A DNA stretch of 64,000 bases, from NCBI GenBank assembly GCA_012295275.1, contig CM022671.1, forward strand, positions 21,390,001 to 21,454,000, in the 5' to 3' direction. The position numbers were made by a program, and so were the translations under genes. Of this stretch, positions 4,529 to 64,000 are shown in pieces. A model generated the notes under the pieces. The model saw only the letters and a program-made list of their open reading frames with translations. It ran no database searches and was not told where the DNA came from. The DNA comes from Chrysomallon squamiferum (taxonomy: Eukaryota; Animalia; Mollusca). Position 1 is the first letter of the stretch. The number at the start of each line of letters is the position of its first letter.

Positions 4529-7500
4529 TCATCCAATGTAAAGTCTGTGAAAGTCATTGGCTCCAAAACCAGCATTGCACTTGGGACACTTTCTCTGTCT
4601 GGTTTCGTATCGCGTCCGCAAACACTCGAGACAAAACACATGAAAACACTTGGTTAGCACAGCATCCTTCTTGTTCACTTTACAAGACGGACAGGTAAGT
4701 TGTTCCTGTGAAAGAAATTTCTAAATTAAATTTAGCTGATAAAATACATTAAAAAAATAGTAATAATAATCATAATCTAAATAACAATTAAATAAAATAA
4801 TAATAAAAGAAAGAAAATTCTAACATGTTTTGAATGCAGAAATGTATTATAAAATATAAAATAATGATAAGAAATGTTAATCTGTAATACATTTCTTAAA
4901 AGAGACAGATGCAGAACAAAAATGAGATTGGATGCTGTGTTTATTTCTGAACAATATATCTCACCAAATATAATATTAAAACTTTAAAGAACAATCACAA
5001 AAATGCAAAAAAAAAAGAATCTGCAGAAAGGTATGTCAACTGCTACATATATGAAAATCTATGTTTAAAGAAGAATTAATTAATTTATTAAATGAATGAA
5101 CAATTATATTTTAAAATATTTTTTTTACATATTTGAAAAAAAAATATGTTTTGTTGTTTACCTTGTATTCTTTAATTTCCTCCAAAAGTACTTCATCTGC
5201 AGCTCCAGCCATTTCTATCTTTTTACTTCTTTCCAATTTGCGCATTAACTTGGCTAATTCCTCCTAAAATGTACCCACACTCACCATTACATTATATCAT
5301 TAAATGAACCAATCAGAGGTACAATATTATCCTTTAAAACCATGTGAAATACACATATCTGTAATAATTTGAAATTTATTTGATTTTGTTTTCAATACAA
5401 AAGAAGCAAAAATGTAATTCTAATTTTTATAAAATAAAATTATTTTTGAAGAATTACATATCATATATATCCAAACATGTCCCATGTTAAATTTTATAGC
5501 AATATATTTCTCAACAGACTAGACTTAAATTTTCCGAATTAATATGTGTGTCCTTCAAATTACCAGAAATATATTTATATATATATATCACAATGTACCT
5601 GAGTTCTCTTGTATTTGTAGGATTCCTGTTCAATGGACCCAGTCTTGTCAGCTACTGCTACTTGAGCTTCTTTCAGCTGAGCCTGGTACTTGTCAAGGTG
5701 AAGTTTCAAGTCGGCTGCTGTCTGGGAACTCTCCACAGCTTTACGTTTATACATGTCCATCGCCTGCTGAGTGAGACTGTGAAAAAACAGTCAAAATAAA
5801 TGAAAACAGCATTACTGTATTGTAAACAATAATCTAGACTGAAACAGAGAACACCAAATAAATCCATACAGTGTTGAATGTATAGGAAAAGGAAATAATA
5901 CAGCCATCTACTAAAACTGAACTTTATTTTGACTAAAGTTAATCTATTTTCACATATAAACAATAGTGACACACACATACATTCACTTATTCTTTCTCTC
6001 TCTCAAATTTCTGATTAGTGTTTATTTTTCTTAAAACTGACAAGTTTGTTATGTAACTGAAAATCACAAACCTCAGTTCTTTCTCTAAAGCTGACAAGTT
6101 GTTTTGCAAGATTCTTTCTTTCTCCTCCAGTTTTCTGACCACCAGGTTCTGTGCATCAACCTGGAACTGCAGTGTGGCCACCTGATCCACCAGAATGTCT
6201 TTTTCTTCTCTCAGCAACTTGTGTATCTGATTGGATTTAATCCTCTGTAATATGTAAAAAGGAAACCAAATAATAACCTATAGAAAGTCAAGTTAATATC
6301 CCCAGTAATAATGTTGCATGTATTCTTTGTGTAGGATTATAGCAAAAAATTCTAAATTCAAATCTATGTAAAGAAACAGTCTGTTTTTTTTTCTTTTGTG
6401 ACCACATAAAGCTTTTCAATCACCGAACCCATAAAAACTATACAGATGTATAAAATTTAGTACCACAAAATATTGATTACATATTTAAGTCAGAAGGTCT
6501 AATGCAAAAATTTCTTTTCCATCTATACATAAAAATAATCTAAATATTGCAAAACAGCACACCATCAGAACAATACTGCTATTTCTCGAACTATAGGAAA
6601 TGTAAAGTGGTAACAATAGTAATGATGGTCATGTACTGTTATGGAGTTACTTTTAAAATATTATAAATTTTATAAGATTTTATATATTTTGTTTGATCTG
6701 AAATTATTATGATTTATTAGTACTATTATTATTATTATTATTATCATTTACCCTTCTTTAAAGCAACTGCTAACAAAATACTGAGTAAATATTTTGTATT
6801 AAAACTTTTCATAATTCAGTATGCACTACAAACCAACCTCTGACATTAGTTTAAAGTTTGCATCATCTTTCTCTCTTAGCTGTTGTAGTAGTCGAGTGTT
6901 CTGTTCTTGCATATCCTCAAAAGCTTGTCCTGTCACTTCAAGATCATTTAACAGTGCTTCTTCTCTCTGAGTAAAAATGTAAAAATATTAATAGTTTAAC
7001 ACTAAAAAGGGAAAAGGAACTAACACAAATGGATGGAAATCTATAAAACTTTCAAGTTCCAATCATTATATTAAACTTCAGATATTTTTTTTTTTTTTTT
7101 TAAGAAATTATCTGAATGACAAATAGTTATTTCACCCAAAGCCAGAAATGCACTGTCATTCATGATGATTCTCTCTCTTATTTTTTTCTAACATATAAAT
7201 GCAGTTGTTAGTAAACAGATGTTTTCACACACATTAACACACACTATGTAATATACATTTAATAAAGTAAAGTGTTATTTTTCACCTGTTTCTGTGCTGT
7301 TAAATGTTTCTGCAAGTCTGCAATGACCTCATCGTTCCTTTTTATCTTCTTAATGGCATCATCCTCTGCCAGTTTCCTTCGATCTTTTCTTTCGGCTTCC
7401 TGCATTTTCTTGATGTGGTTTTTCAGTTCTTCTATCTCTTGTTTAGCTTTTCTCTCACTAGCCATTAACTGGATTAAAATAAAAAAATAAAAAAATGACA

Positions 7501-10500
7501 CCCAGAAATTAAAACAACAAACTATAAGATATTTAGACCACAACAATGAGTTTAAATACTGCAAATACATGGTTATGCAAGAGTAAAAGAAACAAAAATT
7601 TGGCACTTTAATATTATTTTATATGTTGTTATTGTTGCTGTTATTTTTCTGTTTGCTTAATTGATTGAATTCACACAAAAATTTTGAGATTACCATCACT
7701 TTGTCTCTCTGCTCTTTGGGAGCACTTTTGTACATATCCAAAAGCAATTTCAGCTCCTTCTGACTATCTTGAGCCTTCCTGCAACAAAAATAATAAAACT
7801 GTATTTCCTAATGTATCTGTTCCACAGTCAGTTATAATTATATTAATGACTGGTACCAGAGGCACTGTCTTTTTACCCACTTCCTTTTCCTCTGCTTCCA
7901 TTCCTTTTATTTATTTAACTATTTTAAATCTGTTCTTCTCTCAAAAACAATAATAATAAATTAAATAAATGATGATGATAATGATGTAATATGATTATAA
8001 TGATAATGATAGAATATAAATGTGTCAATTCAAATTATACTCAATTCAGTTGTGCTATAAAAATAAAAAGAACAAGAACAAGAACAAGAACAAGAACAAG
8101 AACAAGAACAAGAACAAGAACAAGAGCAAGAAATATGAGTAACAAAATATAAATGTGTGAATTCAGACTTACTTCAGCTGTGCTCTAAGTTCCCTAACAA
8201 CATCACTTTCTATCCTTCCTTTATCCTTGTGTTCAAAATCATCACCTTCGTCTCTGTCTTTCACCACAATCACCTCAGCCTCTGCTGCCTTCGGTGTCAC
8301 CTGTACTGGAGTGGAAACCACAGCTTCTTCTTTCACTTCTTTGGCATCTGAAGATGATGATGGTGTGAATGATGCAGACGATGTAGATGATGCAGCTCCT
8401 TCTGCTTTCAACTGTAAATGAACACTAAAGAATCAGTATCTGTTACAATAAAGTACACATCAGGTTTTTTTTTCTAACAATTTCACTACCAAGATGGGTA
8501 CTGCCAATTAAATATAAAAACTGTAATTATGGTAAAAGTAGATGATTCAGAGGCACCATACTATAGTAAAAACATAATATGATAGTTCAGTGATTTTGTT
8601 TTAATTCAATACAATGTGACCAATGAAGCTATCATTTTAGGTGTGAATGAAGTACAATTGTTTACTGCTATACCATTCACTAAAAATTTTCAAGAGAACA
8701 ATGCCAACAAAATTATGTACCCAATAAAGAATACATTATTGTAAAAAAAATAGGATGAAATGGTTTTGCATTCAGTATGCCAGTTCTTAAATTCACCAAA
8801 AGATCCACATTTTATTAAAATTAAGAAAACTCAAATCAATCTAATGAAAAAATTAATATTGTCTTTGCTGATGTGTTTTATTCTAATTTACCTTGGCAAT
8901 ATCTGCTTGTGCTTCTTTCAACCTTCTCTTGTACCTGCCTGATTCCATTTTCAGCTGCTGGTTATGGTTTTGTAGACTCTGAATGAGATTCCTCATTTCT
9001 CGATTAATGGTCCCTAAAAAACCCACAAAAAAACACAATATTTAATTAAATTAGTTATGTACAATTACATACACACTGCTCTGCAAGTATTATCCATATA
9101 ATGCAACTATTACCAATTTTTCATAATTTTCGTAAATTTTCAAAAACAAATTAATAAAACAGGGCAGAAATTTGGATCTAATTATTTGAAATATCCAACA
9201 CACTTTTTTCACTGATATTTAGTTTCTGTTTATCCATATTATTTTGTATTTTTTCTGTAAATGGAGAGATAAATAATTGTTTGATTTAGTATTTATGTAA
9301 AACCAGTTATTAATATTATTTCAGTGGTTGTTTATTAGTGTTTTAGACATTAATAAAACTCAGTAATGAATAAACTCACCTGTCTGTTCATTGGCAGCTA
9401 AGGTTTGTTCAAATTCTATTCTCAACATTTCATATTCCTTCCGCACCTGAGCAAGCATATCCTCCAGCTGAATAATTTCTGATCGTAACTTCTTCTGACA
9501 GAGTAGCTCATCACTCTGTAAAACCAGTAACATGTAACAGTAATACAACAACACATCAGTAATATATAACAATAACATATTAGTAACGGGTAACGATAAC
9601 AGATCAGTAACATAAAACAATAACAAATCAATAACATAAAACAATAACAAATCAGTAACACATAACAATAATACAACAGCATCAGTAGTTATTTTCTATA
9701 ATCTTTCAGTAATAAACTAAAACCAGTATTTTTCATGAATGTCAAAGTAAAGGTAAAGGACACCTTCCACCTTTTCCCTACACATCAATTTTTCAACAAA
9801 GAAAAATGCAAGATTTTAACATTACAAATTTATGTTCAGTTGCATTTCATGGATTACATATGAAATCTATTACCATATCAGGCATGATCTACACCTTTAT
9901 CACCATATCAATAAAAATCATTTTTATTACGCAAAATATCATAAATGGGAATATCAAATTGTGCTAAAAAAAAACAAAAAAAGAAACATTTTCATGAAAT
10001 ATGGAATATTTTCTGTCTGTTCTACTACATGTTACCAAAACAAGATGCAAATTTATTAACACAATTTCAAAAAAAACTGTTACGAGGCATCATCAGTAAT
10101 CTAAAATCTCCCCATTTAAAGTACTTACTTGAATTACATAAAACATTACAAATTGAATATTAGATTTTATCGCTATCCCTTATTAATTTTGACTCTGAAA
10201 AAACTTTGTATGTTTGAAATGTGGAGTATATTTTAGTTTTCTCTGTTCTAATAACAGCTACCAAAAAAAATGCAAATTGTTTTCATACTACAAAGTGTGA
10301 AATATAAAATGTATCTGACCTCCATCTGTTCTATATGTCTGAGGTGAGTGTTCTTGGTGTTCTGAAGCTGACTGCGAGCCTCTTCAAGCTGGGTTTTCAT
10401 TGTCAGACTCTCATTGTACAACACAGAGAACTTCGACTGAAGACATTTGTACTCGGTAGTTTCCACAATTACTGACTCGGGCAAGTGAAGCAGCTATTAA

Positions 10501-13500
10501 TAATATATAAGATAACTTGTACAAATAGGTCTAATAAATATACCTGGATCTAGAATGGTAAAGATATCCATATAAACAACTTTTTTCTTTTTTTTTAAAT
10601 TATTTTTTTAAGGCAGATTTTAGTCATGAGATTTTACAGACATATACCTAGATATACACTCATACACACACAGGAATGAAATACATGTTTACATCAAGTT
10701 AAATGAAAATTATTAATGCATGTCTATAATACTGAAATTAAAAAACTAACATCCATTTTCAGTTTCTCTACTTCTTTCTTTGCTTCCTGATGGTCTCTGT
10801 TCATTTTCTCTAATTCTGTTAAACGATTTGCTGCCAGCTCTCGAAGTTCCTCCAATTCAGAAAATACCTCATCAAGCTATAACAAGAAAGAAAGAAGATA
10901 AATAAATAAATAAATAAATGTAAAGAATAAGAGAAGAAGTTTCAGATATCTCACAAAGTATTAAAATGAAAGTAATAAACTTCTGATATGTCAAAAACAG
11001 AACAAGTCATGTGCCATTTACATGTAATACAAGTAAAAGATTTTAGATTTCATTAAATAAAACAGGCTTAAAGAAACTGTCATTGTGACTGTGAAATATA
11101 GTTTTAACATGCAATTTTTTTTAATTTTTTTTTTGACATTATTTAATATACTAAACTGTTAAAAAACAAAATGGCAATTCAGAAAATTAGGATCTCTCCA
11201 TAAATAATAAAGGAAATTGAATTCAACTATCAGCTATGTTAGGAAAATATTTAGAAATATATAATCTTGAAAAACAAAAATTAAAGAAAATAAATATATA
11301 TATATATTATTTTGTTTACCCTGGTTCCTCCTATGCTTTTTACACCTTCCACTCTGATAGCTCCTGTTGTTTCTTTGTAAGTTCTAATTGTGTTGTAGGC
11401 ATCTGCAAGCAAGCGATCAAGTTTATCACATCTCTGATCAGCTTTCTCATACTGGTACTGCAAGTCATCCAGCTCATTTTTTAATTCAGCAATCTCTGTC
11501 TCTGTGGATGTTACTTTGTCCTGTAGCTGAGAAATCTACAAGTAAGAACCAATTAGGTTTAGTTACAGAAGAAATAACTGGAAAATATAAAAGGTGTTTG
11601 CAGTGAATAATAGTCTGTTAAAAAATTATGTAACAAATTATATCATCTAACTGAAAAAGAAAAAGGGAAGAAAATAAATTATAACACACTCAGTGGTGTG
11701 AAACAAAATTCAAATCTGCTAAAATTCCAAAATAAAGTCATTGTTAAATAACTGCTGTGCACTTCTTTAACAAAATAATTTAACTACAACAAATATGTCA
11801 AGTTTATCATGAGAGGTACCTTTTTTTTTTTTTTTTTACTGTCTTCAATAAGACAGTCAAAAATCTGTGATTTTATAATATGCTGAGAATATGTAAAACT
11901 GAAAAAAGAAAGCCTCACTATTTAACATGCTTTTATTTTGTGTTAAAATTTCAAGTTCTCACCCGCAGTGTGTGGTCGTGGTGTCTCTGGTGCAGCTGTG
12001 TGACTAGGTTGTGCATTTGTTTGTTTTCTTTACGTAAATCAGACAATTCATTCTTCACTACATCCTCAACTTCTGCCAGTTTAGTGTGTAATTCGTCCTT
12101 CTCTTCATCCTTCTTCTCCTCCCCTCCTTCTTCCTCTTCTAAAACAAGTGAAAAAGAAAAATTAGATTTACATTCATTTTACTACAACATATCTATGGTA
12201 GGTCTTACATACATGATGAACTCTGTCCATTAGTATGAGCTGAAAGTTATCAGTATCACATATAATTGTTAATTTTGATTCTCTTAAAGGAAAACATGAT
12301 CTAAGATGATAAACAGAAGCTTCGAGACAAGTGCAGTAATGCACAATTTGTAATAATGTAGCAGTATCAGTGATAAACAACATTTCAGATATGTGCCAAA
12401 AATATTATAATATTCTAACTGTGAAAAAATATACCCCAGTTAATATCATAGTAACATTTTAATATATATGTATATACAGTTCCTTGGGAGAATTTTCCTA
12501 TTCACTCAGAATATCTTAGATCAGATTACAGTATAAAATGTAAAAATATTAAACGTGCCTTTTCAAAAGTACAGGCCAGCTGTAAGTATACCTTTTTTCT
12601 CATCTTCATTATTTTCTTCTTTCTTCACCGTAGCATCCTGGCCAGATTTTAAAGCCTGTCCTAACAAGTCTTCTTTCTCTTTTTCTGCTTTGTTTTCCAG
12701 TGCTTTGTGTAACTTCTCATTGCGCTGTAACATTCGATCAAACGCCTGCAGCAGTTTGCCTATTGCACGTTTTGAAAACTCCACCCTCTGTCCCAGAGTT
12801 TCCTCCAATTCCTGTTTGTCCCATGTCGACAGCATGGCCAGAAATGAAGTCGTTTCATTGCTTTCATCTGTTATGTACAACAACATAGAAATTTTTTATA
12901 ACATTAATTTATATAATGATAACAGCAAAATCTAATGTCTTGAAGTTGTTCATTGCTTTCATATGTTATGCATAATGAAATGAAATTTTTTATAACATAA
13001 ATTTATATAATGATAACAACAAAATCTAATATCTTGAAGTTGTTCATTGCTTTCATATGTTATGCATAATGAAATGAAATTTTTTATAACATAAATTTAT
13101 ATAATGATAACAACAAAATCTAATATCTTGAAGAAATGAAGTTGTTTCATTGCTTTCATCTCTTAAGGTATAACAAAAGGAAATTTTTTTACAACTTGAA
13201 TGTATATAATGATAATAAAGCAAAATTTAACATCTTGAAGAAATGAAGATATTTCACTGCTTTCATCTGTTATGAAATGAATGTATATATATTAATAGTA
13301 AAATGTCACATCTAGAAAAATAAATCTGAAATATATTTACTTTAGAACTACATTTTTCAAAAATCAATAATAAATAAAAAATGTCTCTATAAAAAAATAA
13401 CAACAGTAAAAACTAAATGGAATATACAAGAACATTTAATTTGAATATTCAATGTGCCAAATATAGAACAACTGATTAAATTTAAAAAAATTTAATCTCA

Positions 13501-56448: not shown

Positions 56449-56858
56449 CAATTTTTGTTTTACTGTCTTATATTGTCTGTGATTTTATAAAGATATTAAT
56501 AAATAAAATAATAAAATGTGAACTTATAATTAATATTCCTGTTGTTTAATTTTGTTTTCATAAAAGAAGCGGTCTTTATATTTCTGGAGGTTTTTTTTTT
56601 TTTTTTTTTTATGTAAATATGAAAGATTTGATATTTTATTTTTAAGAGTGGTGATGGGAATTCTAAATTCAGCATCATTTTCTATCCAAGAATGAAATTC
56701 TAAACATAATAATTTATTTATCTATTTTTTTTTTTTTGGAATAAACATATTTTAAATGCAAACCAAAAACAAACATCTGTAATTCACATTTTACCTGCTG
56801 AATGAAACGGATTTAAAAAAAGACAAAAGAAATTACTTTTGTCTTTCATATACATTTA

Positions 56859-57218
56859 TTATTTAAATAGTTTAAACTGTTTAAAATACTTCTGTACATC
56901 TTCTTTCTTGTATGGTTTTACTGCTACACAAGTTGGAATGTTTTCTGGCTGTTCAATCCAGAGTTTGTGTGCAATGTTTTCACAAGTTAGTTTTTCTGAA
57001 AGAGTTTTCAAACTAGACTCATCCTTTGCCTCCAGGACAACTTTATGCATTCTGTCTAAATCAGATAAATATTGCTTAGTAATTTCATCATCATAATACT
57101 GATGCATTACAGCTGTACATGCATGGCATGCTTGAGCTAACAGTGCCCCAGTTGGCCATTTCAGTGCTGTAACAAGATCACTGCGAACAACAATGTACTG
57201 GACAACATTTGATGCCAT
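56859..57218 (-). CDS. PTRHD1: Peptidyl-tRNA hydrolase domain-containing protein 1 (PTH2 family), intronless CDS, 119 aa
   Basis: Motifs VQYIVVRSDL, WPTGALLAQACHA, LDRMHKVVLE and HKLWIEQPENIPTCVAVKPY...FKLFK. An AATAAA overlaps the stop codon. Confidence 0.93.
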   Translation of the reverse strand: MASNVVQYIVVRSDLVTALKWPTGALLAQACHACTAVMHQYYDDEITKQYLSDLDRMHKVVLEAKDESSLKTLSEKLTCENIAHKLWIEQPENIPTCVAVKPYKKEDVQKYFKQFKLFK

Positions 57219-57223
57219 TTTAT

Positions 57224-58926
57224 TTAGAAAATATCTCTCTGAGGAGGTCTTTCTTCTTCACCAGATATATTCTGAAGTTCTCTTAGGCCCTAGAAAACAA
57301 AGTAACAGAAAATATATAATTTATTTTTACAGTTATATTCTTATAACAATAAGAGATGAATAACCATATATTAATCCATTTTAATATAAATTATTATTAC
57401 GCATCAAGTATGTAGTTTCTTTTCTTTAGTGATGTTTTATTGTTCGTGAAGTTAGCACTACATCTGATTTACATATAGTGTAAATATATTTTCAGTTAAA
57501 TAAAGATACAAACACATATACACAAACCTCAAGCACCAATTTAATGTGAGCTTTTATCAAAGCAATCTTTTTAGTCAGTGATTCTGTGCTTTCAGTTAGT
57601 TTTGCAGTTTTCTTTTCTATGAATTGTAATGCTTCATCCAATGTGAACTCTACAAACACACCAAGACCAACAGCTACAAAGATTTTTGAAGGATCTGGGC
57701 TAAAATAAAATACAAATATATAATTATGATTGAAATAAAGTATAAATGTAGATGTTGCAATATTCAATGGATGTAAATAAATGAAATATCAAAATGCAGC
57801 ATTAATTAAAAATAGTAATATAAGCACAAACACACACATGCACACACACACACACACATACATATTAAAAAAGTTAAATTACAAAATAAAAAATTGTATT
57901 AGAAACACATTTCATTTTTCACTGGTACTGACTTATTACATATATTATAAAATACCTACATTTTAGCCTGAATATAGAAATTGCATCCAATGTCAGTTTT
58001 AGTTTTTAATTCAGTCTTGTGTAAGTTAGTTTCCTACAACAAAAATACTAATTATTGCCATTTTATCTTAAATTAACAAGAAACAGATCTGCAAGAATTT
58101 ACAAATAAATGTCGTCTGAATTTCTAACAGTAATTTTGCTTGAATAGAATCAGTTGCCAGACAAAAAAAAATCTAATGAACCAAACAGCTGTACATTTAG
58201 AAATCTGTTAATTAAAATGCCACTACCAGCACTTAAATCAATACCTCCTATGTTTTAAACATTTTAAATTCATAATTAAATTTTATTTAATTTTATTTTT
58301 TTTAAATATAGATATATCTCAATTACATATATTTTTTCTTATTACTGAACATATATTTTGTTCTGTCTGTTCAACAATTGTTTCATATCTTTTCATGTCA
58401 GAGACTATCCAAAAAACACAATACATAATACTATATTTTCAAACCTATTAATACATCCAGTTATAAAAGTGAAATCTTTGAGTGTCTCTTTAGAATTTTA
58501 CTTAAACTGTAGGTTATCAACAAATAAAAGAAAACTGTCCACAAAAATTAAAAAATCATAAATTTTTTAGCATTTACTACAGTCAAGTGTAATAATGTTA
58601 ATGTTTTACTTCAGTACCAACCTTAAGTCTTTCAATCACAGTTTTCAATTGTAAATATTCAGAAATTTGACCAAATATTCTATCTCTCACATCTAAGGTT
58701 TTTCTGAAATGTTTAAACAAAATAATATAATTTAGTTCCAAATACAAATTAAAAACTGAACAAGTGAACTGAATTTTGAATACTGTATAAGGATTTGATT
58801 AATTCAAAGACTAGTAAAATACTTTTGAGTTATTCATTGTCATCAGAAAATAAAATATATGACACATCTAATGTATAACTTTATTAAATATCTAAGTATA
58901 TCTGGTTTTATCTGGTATTATTATTA

Positions 58927-58984
<58 letters not shown>

Positions 58985-59389
58985 AATGTATAAATTATAT
59001 CAGTGTAATGTGTAATATGGTGTCTAACACAAAAGTAACATTATCTCAATACTTTTTACAATTATAGAATGACGTGTCGTCTATAACAATGAACCTATAA
59101 AGTATAAATTGTTGACAAAATATTTTCTTTGTTTTATATATAATTTACATGTCAATATTATAAATAAACAGTGTCTGTTACTATTACTGTATTTACTGTA
59201 TTAGTATTAGTATTACTAGTATTAATTACAATTAACAAGATAAAGAGGCTGTAATGAATTATAATAATTACATCATTTCTATAAAATGAATTAGATCATA
59301 GATGTTAATTAAAGCTACCTAAGATCTTCCTTTAACGTTTCATTTAAAAACTTTTCGAATTCAAGTACTTTAGCAGACGTATCGCTCAT
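57224..59389 (-). CDS. UXT: Protein UXT (alpha-type prefoldin-like), 154 aa
   Basis: Exons 59389-59319, 58703-58622, 58033-57960, 57699-57528 and 57289-57224 total 465 nt. Motifs include KVLEFEKFLNETLKEDL, EYLQLK..IE.L, TDIGCNFYIQA, IFVAVGLGVFVEFTLDEALQFI and IKAHIKLVLEGLRELQNI. Confidence 0.93.
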
Positions 59390-59727
59390 TTTATCATCTT
59401 CTGTCAACTAGTTAATGTGGCCATGCCTCCAACTGTGTTTTATTGTTTATTACGCTAAGATCTACTTTCACGTTATCTGAAAGTATGTACAATTGCCAGT
59501 TAATTAATGAAAAGGATATTTCGTTGTTATAAAACCAATTAAAGTTATTGTTTAATTAATTTGGAGATATTTTAGAAACAAATGCAGAGAAATATACATA
59601 TATGATGTTAAACATACTTCATGTATTATCTTTTTATTTATAAACTTAGAGTTACTATAACAGCTGTTCAATAACTAGTCCCCTTCCATTTGACTTTATT
59701 CCAAGCAAATAAACACTAGTTAGAAAG

Positions 59728-60654
59728 ATGATTTGTGTAACATGGCTGCAAGCTGCCTTAGTTTTTGTTATCCCTTTGTGTTTTCTATGTCTGTTATATG
59801 TTTTGTCAGTATCTCTGGAGAACTTCAAAAGGAGGAGTATCGAAGATAAAGTTGTCCTTATTACAGGAGCAACATCAGGGCTAGGTAAAGCATGTGCAAA
59901 AATATTTTATGAAGCTGGATGCCATGTGATTTTGGCAGGAAGGAGTGAGGTGAAGCTTGAACAAACAAAGACTGCTTTACAAAAAAATGCCAAATTGCAT
60001 ACAGTCATTATGGATTTAGAGAATCTCGAATCTTTGCAAGAAAAATGCCTTGAAGCCACTGCTATATTTGGTAGAATTGACGTTCTTATTAACAATGCAG
60101 GAATCAGCTATCGAGGACTGATAGAAAACACATCACTAGATGTAGACCAGAAAGTAATGCTTGTGAACTATTTTGGCCATGTTGCCATAACAAAAGCTGT
60201 TCTGCCTGCCATGTTGAGCAGAGGTCAAGGTCATATTGTTGGCATCAGTAGCATACAAGGGAAAATTGCTATTCCTTACAGATCAGCATATGCTGCCTCC
60301 AAACATGCATTCCAGGCCTTTTTTGACTGCCTTCGTGCTGAATTGTCGGACAGAAATATACAGATTACAGTAATCAGCCCTAGTTATGTTAGAACCAGTC
60401 TCTCAGTGAATGCAGTTTGTGAAGATGGAACTAAACATGATGTCATGGACAAGACAACAGCAGCAGGGATGAGTCCAGAATATGTGGCCTTACAAGTGAT
60501 GAACAGTGTCACACTGGGAAGAAAAGATGTCATCATATCCTCTTTAGTTCAGCACCTAGCTATTTACATTAGAACACTTGCACCTAACTTGTTTTTTACA
60601 TTAATGGCTTCAAGAGCTAAAAAACAAAAGAAGGATTATGTGAAGAATAAATGA
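59728..60654 (+). CDS. DHRS7B: Dehydrogenase/reductase SDR family member 7B, single-exon CDS, 308 aa
   Basis: N-terminal TM segment, TGATSGLG Rossmann motif, NNAGISYRG, and ISSIQGKIAIPYRSAYAASKHAFQAFFDCLRAE containing the catalytic YxxxK. Confidence 0.92.
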   Translation: MICVTWLQAALVFVIPLCFLCLLYVLSVSLENFKRRSIEDKVVLITGATSGLGKACAKIFYEAGCHVILAGRSEVKLEQTKTALQKNAKLHTVIMDLENLESLQEKCLEATAIFGRIDVLINNAGISYRGLIENTSLDVDQKVMLVNYFGHVAITKAVLPAMLSRGQGHIVGISSIQGKIAIPYRSAYAASKHAFQAFFDCLRAELSDRNIQITVISPSYVRTSLSVNAVCEDGTKHDVMDKTTAAGMSPEYVALQVMNSVTLGRKDVIISSLVQHLAIYIRTLAPNLFFTLMASRAKKQKKDYVKNK

Positions 60655-61723: not shown

Positions 61724-64000
61724 ATGGCGGAGTTATTGCTTGATTCTAATATCAGGGTTTGGGTTTTCTTGCCCATTGTTATTATAACTTTCTTAATAGG
61801 GATAATTAGACATTATGTTACGATACTCCTTTCATCAGAGAAAAAGTCAGAGCTTCAGCAAGTGTCAGATAGGTAAATAACATGACATACTTTTCAATTT
61901 TATGTTCGCAAAAATCGACATTTTCACAAATCTATGTCATGCTTTCTTGAGCGATAAGGGATTGTATTATTATTATAGCCTACATTAGAAATTGGCTAAA
62001 CTTAACCTCACCGATGCCAGTATTCTAATGATTTTGGCTACTTACTGATAAGCGTTAATAAAGTTATTACATTAATTAATTTTTTTCAACAAGATGAAAT
62101 ATTTTACCTCACGATTCAGTCATCAAAAAAATAAAAAATAAATAAATTAAATTAAATAAAAAATAAAAAAGACAAACAAAACAAACGTGGATATCACATG
62201 GTTTATGAAGCACTACTTTTATATGTCCCTGCTTACAGACATACTAGAAAAAGTAGTATTTTGATAAAACACCCTCAGAGAGTTGGCATGCTGATGAGGA
62301 TTCATTGTGAGACTCACAGTCACACTGATTTCCAAAACATCCTGTAGTTCAGTGTTTAACAGTCACCGTGCTTGATGATACTGATAGGATCAAACATCTG
62401 ATTTTATATATCAAGCCATTTGAAGGCCATAATATTGATGTGTACTTTCCTGTTGACTGAAAAGTGTTTATAAATCATGATCTGAAAGATCTTAAATTGC
62501 TACTAATCAGTATTATTAGCACATCAGAGTGTACAGAGGTAGCATATAGTCACAATCATTCATATGATCTATCATTTCTTTTTTAAACATATATTTAACA
62601 CTTCATTTTGTGAAGACCAAAACAAATTCATAAAACTATATTGAGATGCAAGTAAACAGCCATTCATTCAGTTTATTGCAAAGGTAATTTCAGCCAAATA
62701 AAATGACTGAGAAAAAAGTGATCACAGTAACATTATACACAAATACCATCTTGGTGTGTTATGAAACAGATGTGAAATGATCATGCTCAATAAAAAATTA
62801 ATAATGAAAATTGTAAATTACTTAGTAATCACACTCTAAATTTATTTTGTTATCATTGTTATATATCCATAACAAGATAAATAAGAAAAAAACAAAAAAA
62901 TTATAACTGCAGTGTAATCACCCCAAATCTGTTGTGTTTTATAAAATATGCTGTTATTTAAAATTATTTGTTTATTTTATCCATGTCATTCACAATAATG
63001 GTGATTGTTTATTTAAAATAACATGAATCTTGAGGGGTTTATTATACATTTTATTGTGTGTTTTTTTTGTGTTTTTTTTAGTCATGTTTTAATTCGAAGC
63101 AGAACACTTAGAGAAAATGGAAAATATATTCCAAAAGAGGTGAGATCTAAACTAATCTATAAATTAATATTAAATTAACTGTTACAATTAAATTATTATT
63201 TTAGTTCAGTTTTCTTTGTCACATATTACAATTCATCAAGCTATTTAACTTTTAAGATATTTTTAAATTATTGTTATTATTAATTATATGTATGACAGAT
63301 AATTTGGTTTGTCCAGCTTGCACGTTACATTTATTAAATATTCTGCTTATTATTTGTTCCAGTCATTTCTTGTAAGAAAGACATATTTTAATCATCCAGA
63401 GAAAGGATTTTTCAAGAAAGAAAAAAGGGAAACCCAAACCAAAAATCCAATGACAGGTTAGATGTTTTTTTTATATTTTAATTTATGTACCTAAGTTGAA
63501 TTAATAATATCAGATATGTTTATATTAAAGTGCTAGGCAAGACTTGTGACATTAGAAAATTATTTGAAAATGATAGAATGGACTTGGAGTGACATAATTT
63601 GAAATATCATACAGTCTTCAAGAGTTTCACACAAAAAGAATCTATGACTCTGCATTAAAGTGAATTAAATCTAAACATATTTAAAAATTATTAATAATAA
63701 CTATTTTTTGTTGTGTTAGTTAATAGTAAATTGTTAAATCCTATTACAGCTCTTGATTTTCAAGTCAGAATTATGCTTTATTTATGTTTTATCAGTACGT
63801 TTTAGAAGCAGTAAATTACATCTTCACTTATTCACTTGATTCTCTTTTTTCATTGCTGTTATGATTATTAATTAAATTTTTTATTATTTTTTTTCACTAG
63901 AACTTATAAAATTATTTTGAGGTTTTCATAAACAAAAGTAAATCTTGAATTATGTTTATATCATTAATATTTATTTCAGACCCAACAATGATGACAGATA
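61724..64000 (+). CDS. EMC3: ER membrane protein complex subunit 3, 5' part; continues beyond the window
   Basis: Exons 61724-61872 ([32 protein letters not shown]), 63082-63139 ([19 protein letters not shown]), 63363-63456 (SFLVRK...NPMT) and 63980 to the window end (DPTMMTD). Confidence 0.95.

Follow-up and report, generated by a model that had tools for sequence, protein, structure and literature searches.

UXT and PTRHD1 on one spliced RNA in Chrysomallon squamiferum: a lineage-restricted gene pair with an AUG-poor first reading frame

Introduction

Dicistronic mRNAs are an established class of message in animals. FlyBase records 159 dicistronic pairs in the fly, Mocs2 among them, which amount to 2.5% of genes, and the spacers of the obligate dicistronic pairs range from -34 to 319 nt (PMC4528330). 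For two fly transcripts, Wall et al. [quoted passage not shown] In green algal bicistronic loci, mutation has tied few and weak AUGs before the second open reading frame (ORF2) to leaky scanning, and an AUG restored 483 nt before the ORF1 stop lowered ORF2 output (Duenas et al., 2025; PMC11892635). The present analysis concerns a 64,000-nt stretch of the genome of the mollusc Chrysomallon squamiferum (assembly GCA_012295275.1, contig CM022671.1, positions 21,390,001 to 21,454,000 of the forward strand; hereafter the window, in whose own coordinates all positions are given), where the gene for UXT is followed after 5 nt by the gene for PTRHD1. UXT belongs to the PAQosome. At contig level, spliced UXT RNA runs on without a break to the end of the PTRHD1 ORF. 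The UXT-PTRHD1 pair is a new, lineage-restricted case of the dicistronic mRNAs described above. An earlier note, made from the letters of the window, had called such mRNAs rare in animals, which the fly figures show to be an overstatement.

As in the Drosophila dicistronic mRNAs, two unrelated conserved ORFs share one processed RNA with a short spacer between them, although the genes and the phylum are different (PMC4528330). The algal loci likewise have a short first ORF and few, weak AUGs before ORF2, and their short 5′ untranslated region (UTR) may have a counterpart here (PMC11892635). However, ORF1 in the algae usually has a weak start, whereas the UXT start has an A at -3 and an overlapping upstream ORF (uORF), and the algal pairs are old and conserved, whereas UXT-PTRHD1 is restricted to one lineage. 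The terms UXT, prefoldin, and PTH2 gave no match in the algal supplement of PMC11892635, which may give gene identifiers only. In human ASDURF-ASNSD1, where ASDURF is a prefoldin-like PAQosome subunit (PMC11900008), and in the Mocs2 small/large subunit pair (PMC4528330), a single mRNA also encodes a small conserved protein ahead of a second gene. Those arrangements are widely conserved, whereas here ORF1 has 154 codons and four introns and its partner is a recent neighbor. The termination upstream ribosome-binding site (TURBS) of caliciviruses and influenza B also joins a stop and a start within a few bases, but UXT has no UGGGA core before its stop (PMC5972666). A search of the open literature, in which the papers listed for PTRHD1 are mostly clinical or proteomic, found none that links PTRHD1 to UXT or to bicistronic messages, although FlyBase may list PTRHD1 as a second cistron in the fly.

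Gene structure and RNA of the UXT-PTRHD1 locus

The UXT ORF of 154 amino acids is read from five minus-strand exons (coding exon 1, 59319..59389; exon 2, 58622..58703; exon 3, 57960..58033; exon 4, 57528..57699; coding part of exon 5 with the stop, 57224..57289), and its product ends in RDIF. The four introns, of 615, 588, 260, and 238 nt, all run from GT to AG, and exon 4 carries the Prefoldin domain (Pfam, E value 2e-11). Exon 5 continues past the UXT stop, through the spacer ATAAA (57219..57223) and the intronless PTRHD1 ORF (56859..57218, minus strand), which encodes 119 amino acids of the PTH2 family (Pfam, E value 4e-28). The best matches of UXT are in scallops and snails, at about 62-66% identity, and those of PTRHD1 are in bivalves and limpets, at about 70-78%, with the two best bivalve matches at 76-78% over the full length. 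The protein collection searched contains no close relative, and no sequence in it is identical to PTRHD1 or to the DHRS7B-like protein of the window. The gene model of the earlier note, with the two genes 5 nt apart on the same strand and in different frames, is confirmed. The same note pointed to an AATAAA at each stop and to a PTRHD1 frame that stays open for 13 codons back into UXT exon 5. Both features are real: AATAAA starts at 57224, where the spacer joins the last A of the UXT stop, and again at 56860, overlapping the PTRHD1 stop. Yet the motif occurs 3.1 times per kb in this AT-rich window, so these overlaps are not above chance, and neither is the open stretch, which the off-frame stop rate of UXT would produce with a probability of about 0.21.

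Five sequencing runs cover the stretch, and the analysis used the contigs of the four that are on record as RNA (X1-X4), all from one study. A de Bruijn contig is not equivalent to a single transcript, as overlapping transcripts can be merged in it and rare forms dropped. The junction is crossed by contigs in all four runs, and in two of them all five UXT exons, the spacer, and the whole of PTRHD1 lie on one contig (X1 record 2, 934 nt, from 59427 to 56794; X3 record 9, 877 nt, from 59420 to 56843). X2 record 7 (575 nt) runs from UXT exon 1 to 57151, 68 nt into PTRHD1, and X4 record 12 (168 nt) holds the end of exon 4, exon 5, and the start of PTRHD1 to 57132. Joints in the RNA match the four UXT introns exactly, three of them in every run and intron 4 in three of the four; in the remaining run the loose letters at intron 4 are the end of exon 4. 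No RNA from the four runs covers the bins that fall entirely within introns 1, 3, and 4, and in intron 2 the sole cover is 21 nt of an X1 contig unrelated to UXT. Nor does any run show a loose contig end after the UXT stop or an indel. The proposal of one message with both ORFs is therefore backed by spliced RNA, at the level of contigs and of one study, and this two-ORF mRNA is probably the main form.

The earlier note had named a collapse of the assembly at the junction as a refuting outcome. Several single-base differences separate the RNA runs from the window, so the runs are no copy of the assembly, and together with the missing indel and the joints that confirm the introns this argues that the junction is not an assembly collapse. 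Within PTRHD1, all four RNA variants fall at third positions and are silent. Since roughly a quarter of random base changes are expected to be silent, chance would seldom make all four so, which suggests that PTRHD1 is likely a working gene. One of the three variants in UXT is silent. At 57590, 57615, and 58661 all four runs differ from the window (S113R, E104D, and one silent difference), reflecting either a population difference or assembly errors.

Contigs begin 31-38 nt before the UXT AUG in all four runs, although a contig start cannot mark the start of a transcript. In the 3′ end region (56794..56860, minus strand), contigs of three runs end at 56843, 12 nt after the AATAAA at 56860-56855, and those of one run at 56794. 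Just past this AATAAA lies an inverted repeat (56846-56819, minus strand) whose 11-bp arms match perfectly around a loop of 6 nt; a run of T follows it. The three ends at 56843 fall in the first arm of the repeat; because of the repeat, and because the runs come from one study, they are not taken as a poly(A) site.

AUG content of UXT

Seven AUGs precede PTRHD1 on the spliced message. The first, in good context, lies 3 nt from the start of the longest contig and may or may not be part of the mRNA. The next, at 59397, has an A at -3 and opens a 3-codon uORF (M-I-K-stop, 59386..59397, minus strand, within the RNA contigs that start at 59420-59427), whose stop overlaps the UXT AUG out of frame. 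The UXT AUG has an A at both -3 and +4. The other four are out of frame within UXT, all with T at -3, and open ORFs of 1-7 codons; the last of them, at 57637, is 181 nt upstream of the PTRHD1 AUG on the spliced RNA. The PTRHD1 AUG has an A at -3, from the ATAAA spacer, and a G at +4, the best start context on the message. AUGs ahead of PTRHD1 are thus few and in weak context, the pattern that leaky scanning calls for.

Within UXT, AUGs occur at 0.86 per 100 nt, compared with 3.3 in PTRHD1 and 3.2 in the neighboring DHRS7B-like ORF, and UXT has no internal Met. The same scarcity was measured at the protein level by counting, in each UXT homologue, the dipeptides able to spell an out-of-frame AUG. 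UXT has 4 such dipeptides against a mean of 9.9 in the 118 homologues aligned over most of their length, none of which has 4 or fewer. When AUG-permitting sites and Met are summed per 100 amino acids, UXT stands at 2.6 against 7.74 +/- 1.78, and none of the 111 homologues of 140-175 amino acids (among 120 listed) is as low, the minimum being 3.09. PTRHD1, which served as a control, is not depleted by the same measure (12.6 vs. 10.5, with 108 of 120 homologues at or below it). A site-wise test against 32 named bilaterian UXTs gave 4 observed sites where 12.45 were expected (p 0.0002, with sites taken as independent), and the lowest leave-one-out value, with the test run on each of the 32 in turn, was 0.009. 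The residue classes FYMINK (0.305 vs. 0.318 in homologues) and GARP (0.156 vs. 0.154) have ordinary shares in UXT, so its poverty in AUGs is not an AT effect by residue class. Its overall identity is also normal (0.58 vs. 0.51-0.61).

Some of the losses fall at conserved positions. Y11F, in exon 1, removes a Tyr-Glu pair present in 31 of the 32 named homologues, and Y34F, in exon 2, replaces a Tyr found in 28 of them. Across 66 well-conserved columns UXT departs at five; Y11F, Y34F, and V76I touch a pair that commonly permits an AUG, and L66I and F90V touch none. Both common sites with an obligatory purine at -3 (Y11-E and D120-A) are lost, and the three common sites that UXT retains have T at -3. 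The losses span UXT codons 11-120, mostly far from the stop. The AUG deficit of UXT thus sits in its protein sequence and not in the choice of synonymous codons.

Translation of PTRHD1

Leaky scanning, which was not among the options raised in the earlier note, is favored by the sequence. Some 40S subunits would initiate at the UXT AUG, and others would skip it or initiate instead at the 3-codon uORF, which ends a little beyond the UXT AUG. Scanning subunits would then pass the four weak out-of-frame AUGs within UXT and initiate at the strong AUG of PTRHD1. Ribosomes that terminate at an overlapping uORF have already passed the main AUG, so the uORF could supply the bypass that a weak UXT start would otherwise provide. 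We put at roughly 0.6 the probability that both proteins are made from one mRNA, with PTRHD1 produced by ribosomes that scan past an AUG-poor UXT.

Several observations count against this account. The whole-span RNAs are contigs and not single molecules, and all four runs come from one study. Some messages might be cut short by the AATAAA at the UXT stop, and the switch between mono- and bicistronic messages by poly(A) choice, raised in the earlier note, may operate. The UXT start, with its A at -3, is not weak, which departs from the algal pattern of a weak ORF1 start. There is no sign of synonymous AUG avoidance, as all four possible sites in UXT are realized (about 2 expected from codon resampling), and shuffling the codons of UXT shows no deficit (4 vs. 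4.04). Zero internal Met is also seen in 29 of the 118 homologues, and 2 of the 118 have both zero Met and zero forced-purine sites. The statistics themselves are subject to some caution: the AUG measure was picked after the absence of Met had been noticed, homologues share ancestry, so their ranks cannot be treated as independent, and the test is somewhat liberal, with three leave-one-out values among the 32 below 0.05. Weak context is moreover expected for four of the six lost common sites.

Two overlapping single-gene messages would explain the contigs in another way, PTRHD1 being transcribed from its own start site within intron 4 or exon 5, while the long RNA would be either UXT with PTRHD1 as an untranslated tail or a product of the assembler, since de Bruijn contigs can join overlapping transcripts. 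In the fly, 114 of the 159 dicistronic loci also yield single-gene forms (PMC4528330), and the AATAAA at the UXT stop would suit such an arrangement. However, AUG loss in UXT would not be expected under this explanation, intron 4 is without RNA cover, and none of the four runs has loose letters at its acceptor (57290-57291) other than the end of exon 4, which makes two messages unlikely. These letters are not those of a leader, and the route proposed in the earlier note, a transcript entering at the 57290 acceptor, gains no support from them. A hidden promoter or leader for PTRHD1 may exist, but it is without support in the RNA. Internal ribosome entry on a dicistronic mRNA, or spliced-leader trans-splicing into two messages, would also yield both proteins. 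FlyBase curators find most fly pairs unfit for simple scanning and suggest internal entry (PMC4528330), and the A-rich spacer is unstructured. Neither process requires an AUG-poor first ORF, however, and for trans-splicing the acceptor lacks a leader-like loose end, with the limit that contigs drop rare forms; we regard both as quite improbable.

Termination-reinitiation, in which ribosomes finish UXT and restart 5 nt on at PTRHD1, was offered in the earlier note and draws on the short distance from stop to start and on the strong restart context. The fairly good UXT start would bring many ribosomes to the UXT stop, and AUG loss near the stop is compatible with this model too (PMC11892635). 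Against it, AUG-permitting sites are lost from codon 11 on, far from the stop, so that loss across the whole UXT ORF is not accounted for; the last 243 nt hold no UGGGA core of the kind described for TURBS (PMC5972666), the fold at the junction is ordinary (z 0.61), and the spacer ranges from 0 to 151 nt in the second lineage described below. Reinitiation is accordingly judged improbable. Far less credible still is a UXT-PTRHD1 fusion protein, made by a -1 frameshift or through a cryptic acceptor in exon 5, which the earlier note had also suggested. The PTRHD1 frame is open for the 13 upstream codons, and splicing of exon 4 to either of two AGs, before 57248 and 57236, would keep the frame and meet no stop. 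Yet an open stretch of that length has the substantial chance given above, no slippery heptamer is present, the candidate AGs sit in purine-rich sequence, and the normal acceptor alone is seen in the RNA. No database protein matches both genes, and a weak search found a Prefoldin domain in none of eight longer PTRHD1 matches.

Conservation and origin of the gene pair

Conservation of the spacing in related genomes, which the earlier note had proposed to test, is not found: the pair is unlinked or far apart in all 15 named species, 8 of them molluscs, that appear in the match lists of both UXT and PTRHD1. The two proteins are listed with contigs of different length in 14 of the 15, including all 8 molluscs, a result that is indirect for protein clusters with several members. 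Locus tags, where given, lie thousands apart in Tegillarca (000495/020185), Potamilus (035587/038432), and Dreissena (069510/045291), and in Amphiura both genes are on one 86-Mb record, about 1,050 accessions apart. Limpets, abalone, and chiton fall outside this comparison, with only one of the two genes listed. A further set comprised metagenome loci with PTRHD1 (the best 80 of 216, many of them short or non-animal), and tblastn with E values up to 1 placed UXT near PTRHD1 in none of the 80. As linkage is not seen in relatives, the UXT-PTRHD1 pair is taken to be lineage-restricted.

PTRHD1 is split near residue 63 in eight of the metagenome loci (L027, L046, L048, L053, L057, L062, L064, and L071), and the sequence of L027 has a phase-0 intron there, which the window copy lacks. 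An intronless PTRHD1 would fit a retrocopy, as the earlier note suggested. Plain intron loss is as possible, because PTRHD1 is also unsplit in L004 and L006 and the neighboring DHRS7B-like ORF is likewise a single exon. In the proposed history, PTRHD1 would have come into the UXT 3′ UTR in one lineage, without the intron that many animal copies carry, and selection would afterwards have purged UXT of competing AUGs, partly by replacing conserved residues. None of this implies that the UXT and PTRHD1 proteins are functionally linked.

PTRHD1 behind a second partner

A small conserved ORF of membrane type, with a single hydrophobic stretch, precedes PTRHD1 on its strand in seven of the 80 metagenome loci and stops 0-151 nt short of the PTRHD1 AUG. 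The two abut in L006, where the small ORF spans 325-606. The distance is 17 nt in L004 (5633-5962), 33 nt in L040 (3-422), 47 nt in L003 (47-265), 52 nt in L065 (577-915), 145 nt in L005 (3-296), and 151 nt in L008 (100-429). The seven were initially chosen by motif, and a profile built from six of them retrieves the seventh at an E value of 7e-4, with nothing else below 0.09. One of the seven scanned matches Pfam COX14 at an E value of 2e-4, below the cut-off, and searches for the identity of the small ORF gave no usable Atlas match and no PDB match. L005 and L008 are contigs of about 1 kb that hold both ORFs and no introns, and resemble transcripts.

PTRHD1 therefore lies tight behind the stop of another gene at least twice, each time with a different partner. 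From its sequence, the small ORF with PTRHD1 is likely a second, independent two-gene mRNA; that this second lineage is of crustacean origin is a guess. It may be, and we put this forward only tentatively, that the need for scanning rewrote a conserved chaperone subunit, and that PTRHD1 is a habitual passenger captured independently behind UXT and a COX14-like gene.

Neighboring genes

Head-to-head with UXT lies a short-chain dehydrogenase gene (59728-60654, plus strand; one exon, 308 amino acids, Pfam adh_short), which we take to be DHRS7B-like. RNA contigs of the two genes start about 90 nt apart, and the gap between them (59428..59511) is likely a shared two-way promoter. An EMC3-family gene begins at 61724 (plus strand), about 1.1 kb past the dehydrogenase stop, and belongs to a compact group of housekeeping genes. 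Converging on PTRHD1 is a multi-exon gene (52892 to about 56240, plus strand) whose N-terminus looks mitochondrial, and the two stretches of it that were scanned gave no significant Pfam match. Farther away are at least five caveolin genes in tandem (about 20300-45040, minus strand), one of which was scanned and matches Pfam Caveolin at an E value of 5e-36. A coiled-coil protein with exons at about 5987-12895 (minus strand) resembles BRE1/RNF20, a name for which there is no confirming match.

Significance

The dicistronic mRNAs described in animals so far are for the most part either old or from the fly, and how they arise is hard to see. The relatives of C. squamiferum keep UXT and PTRHD1 apart, which offers a comparison of before and after. 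At loci of this type, annotation that allows one ORF per transcript would miss PTRHD1. If PTRHD1 is indeed reached by scanning past UXT, a constraint on translation would have left a readable mark in a protein sequence, and loss of AUG-permitting dipeptides relative to orthologues would serve as an inexpensive way to look for hidden second ORFs in other animal genomes.
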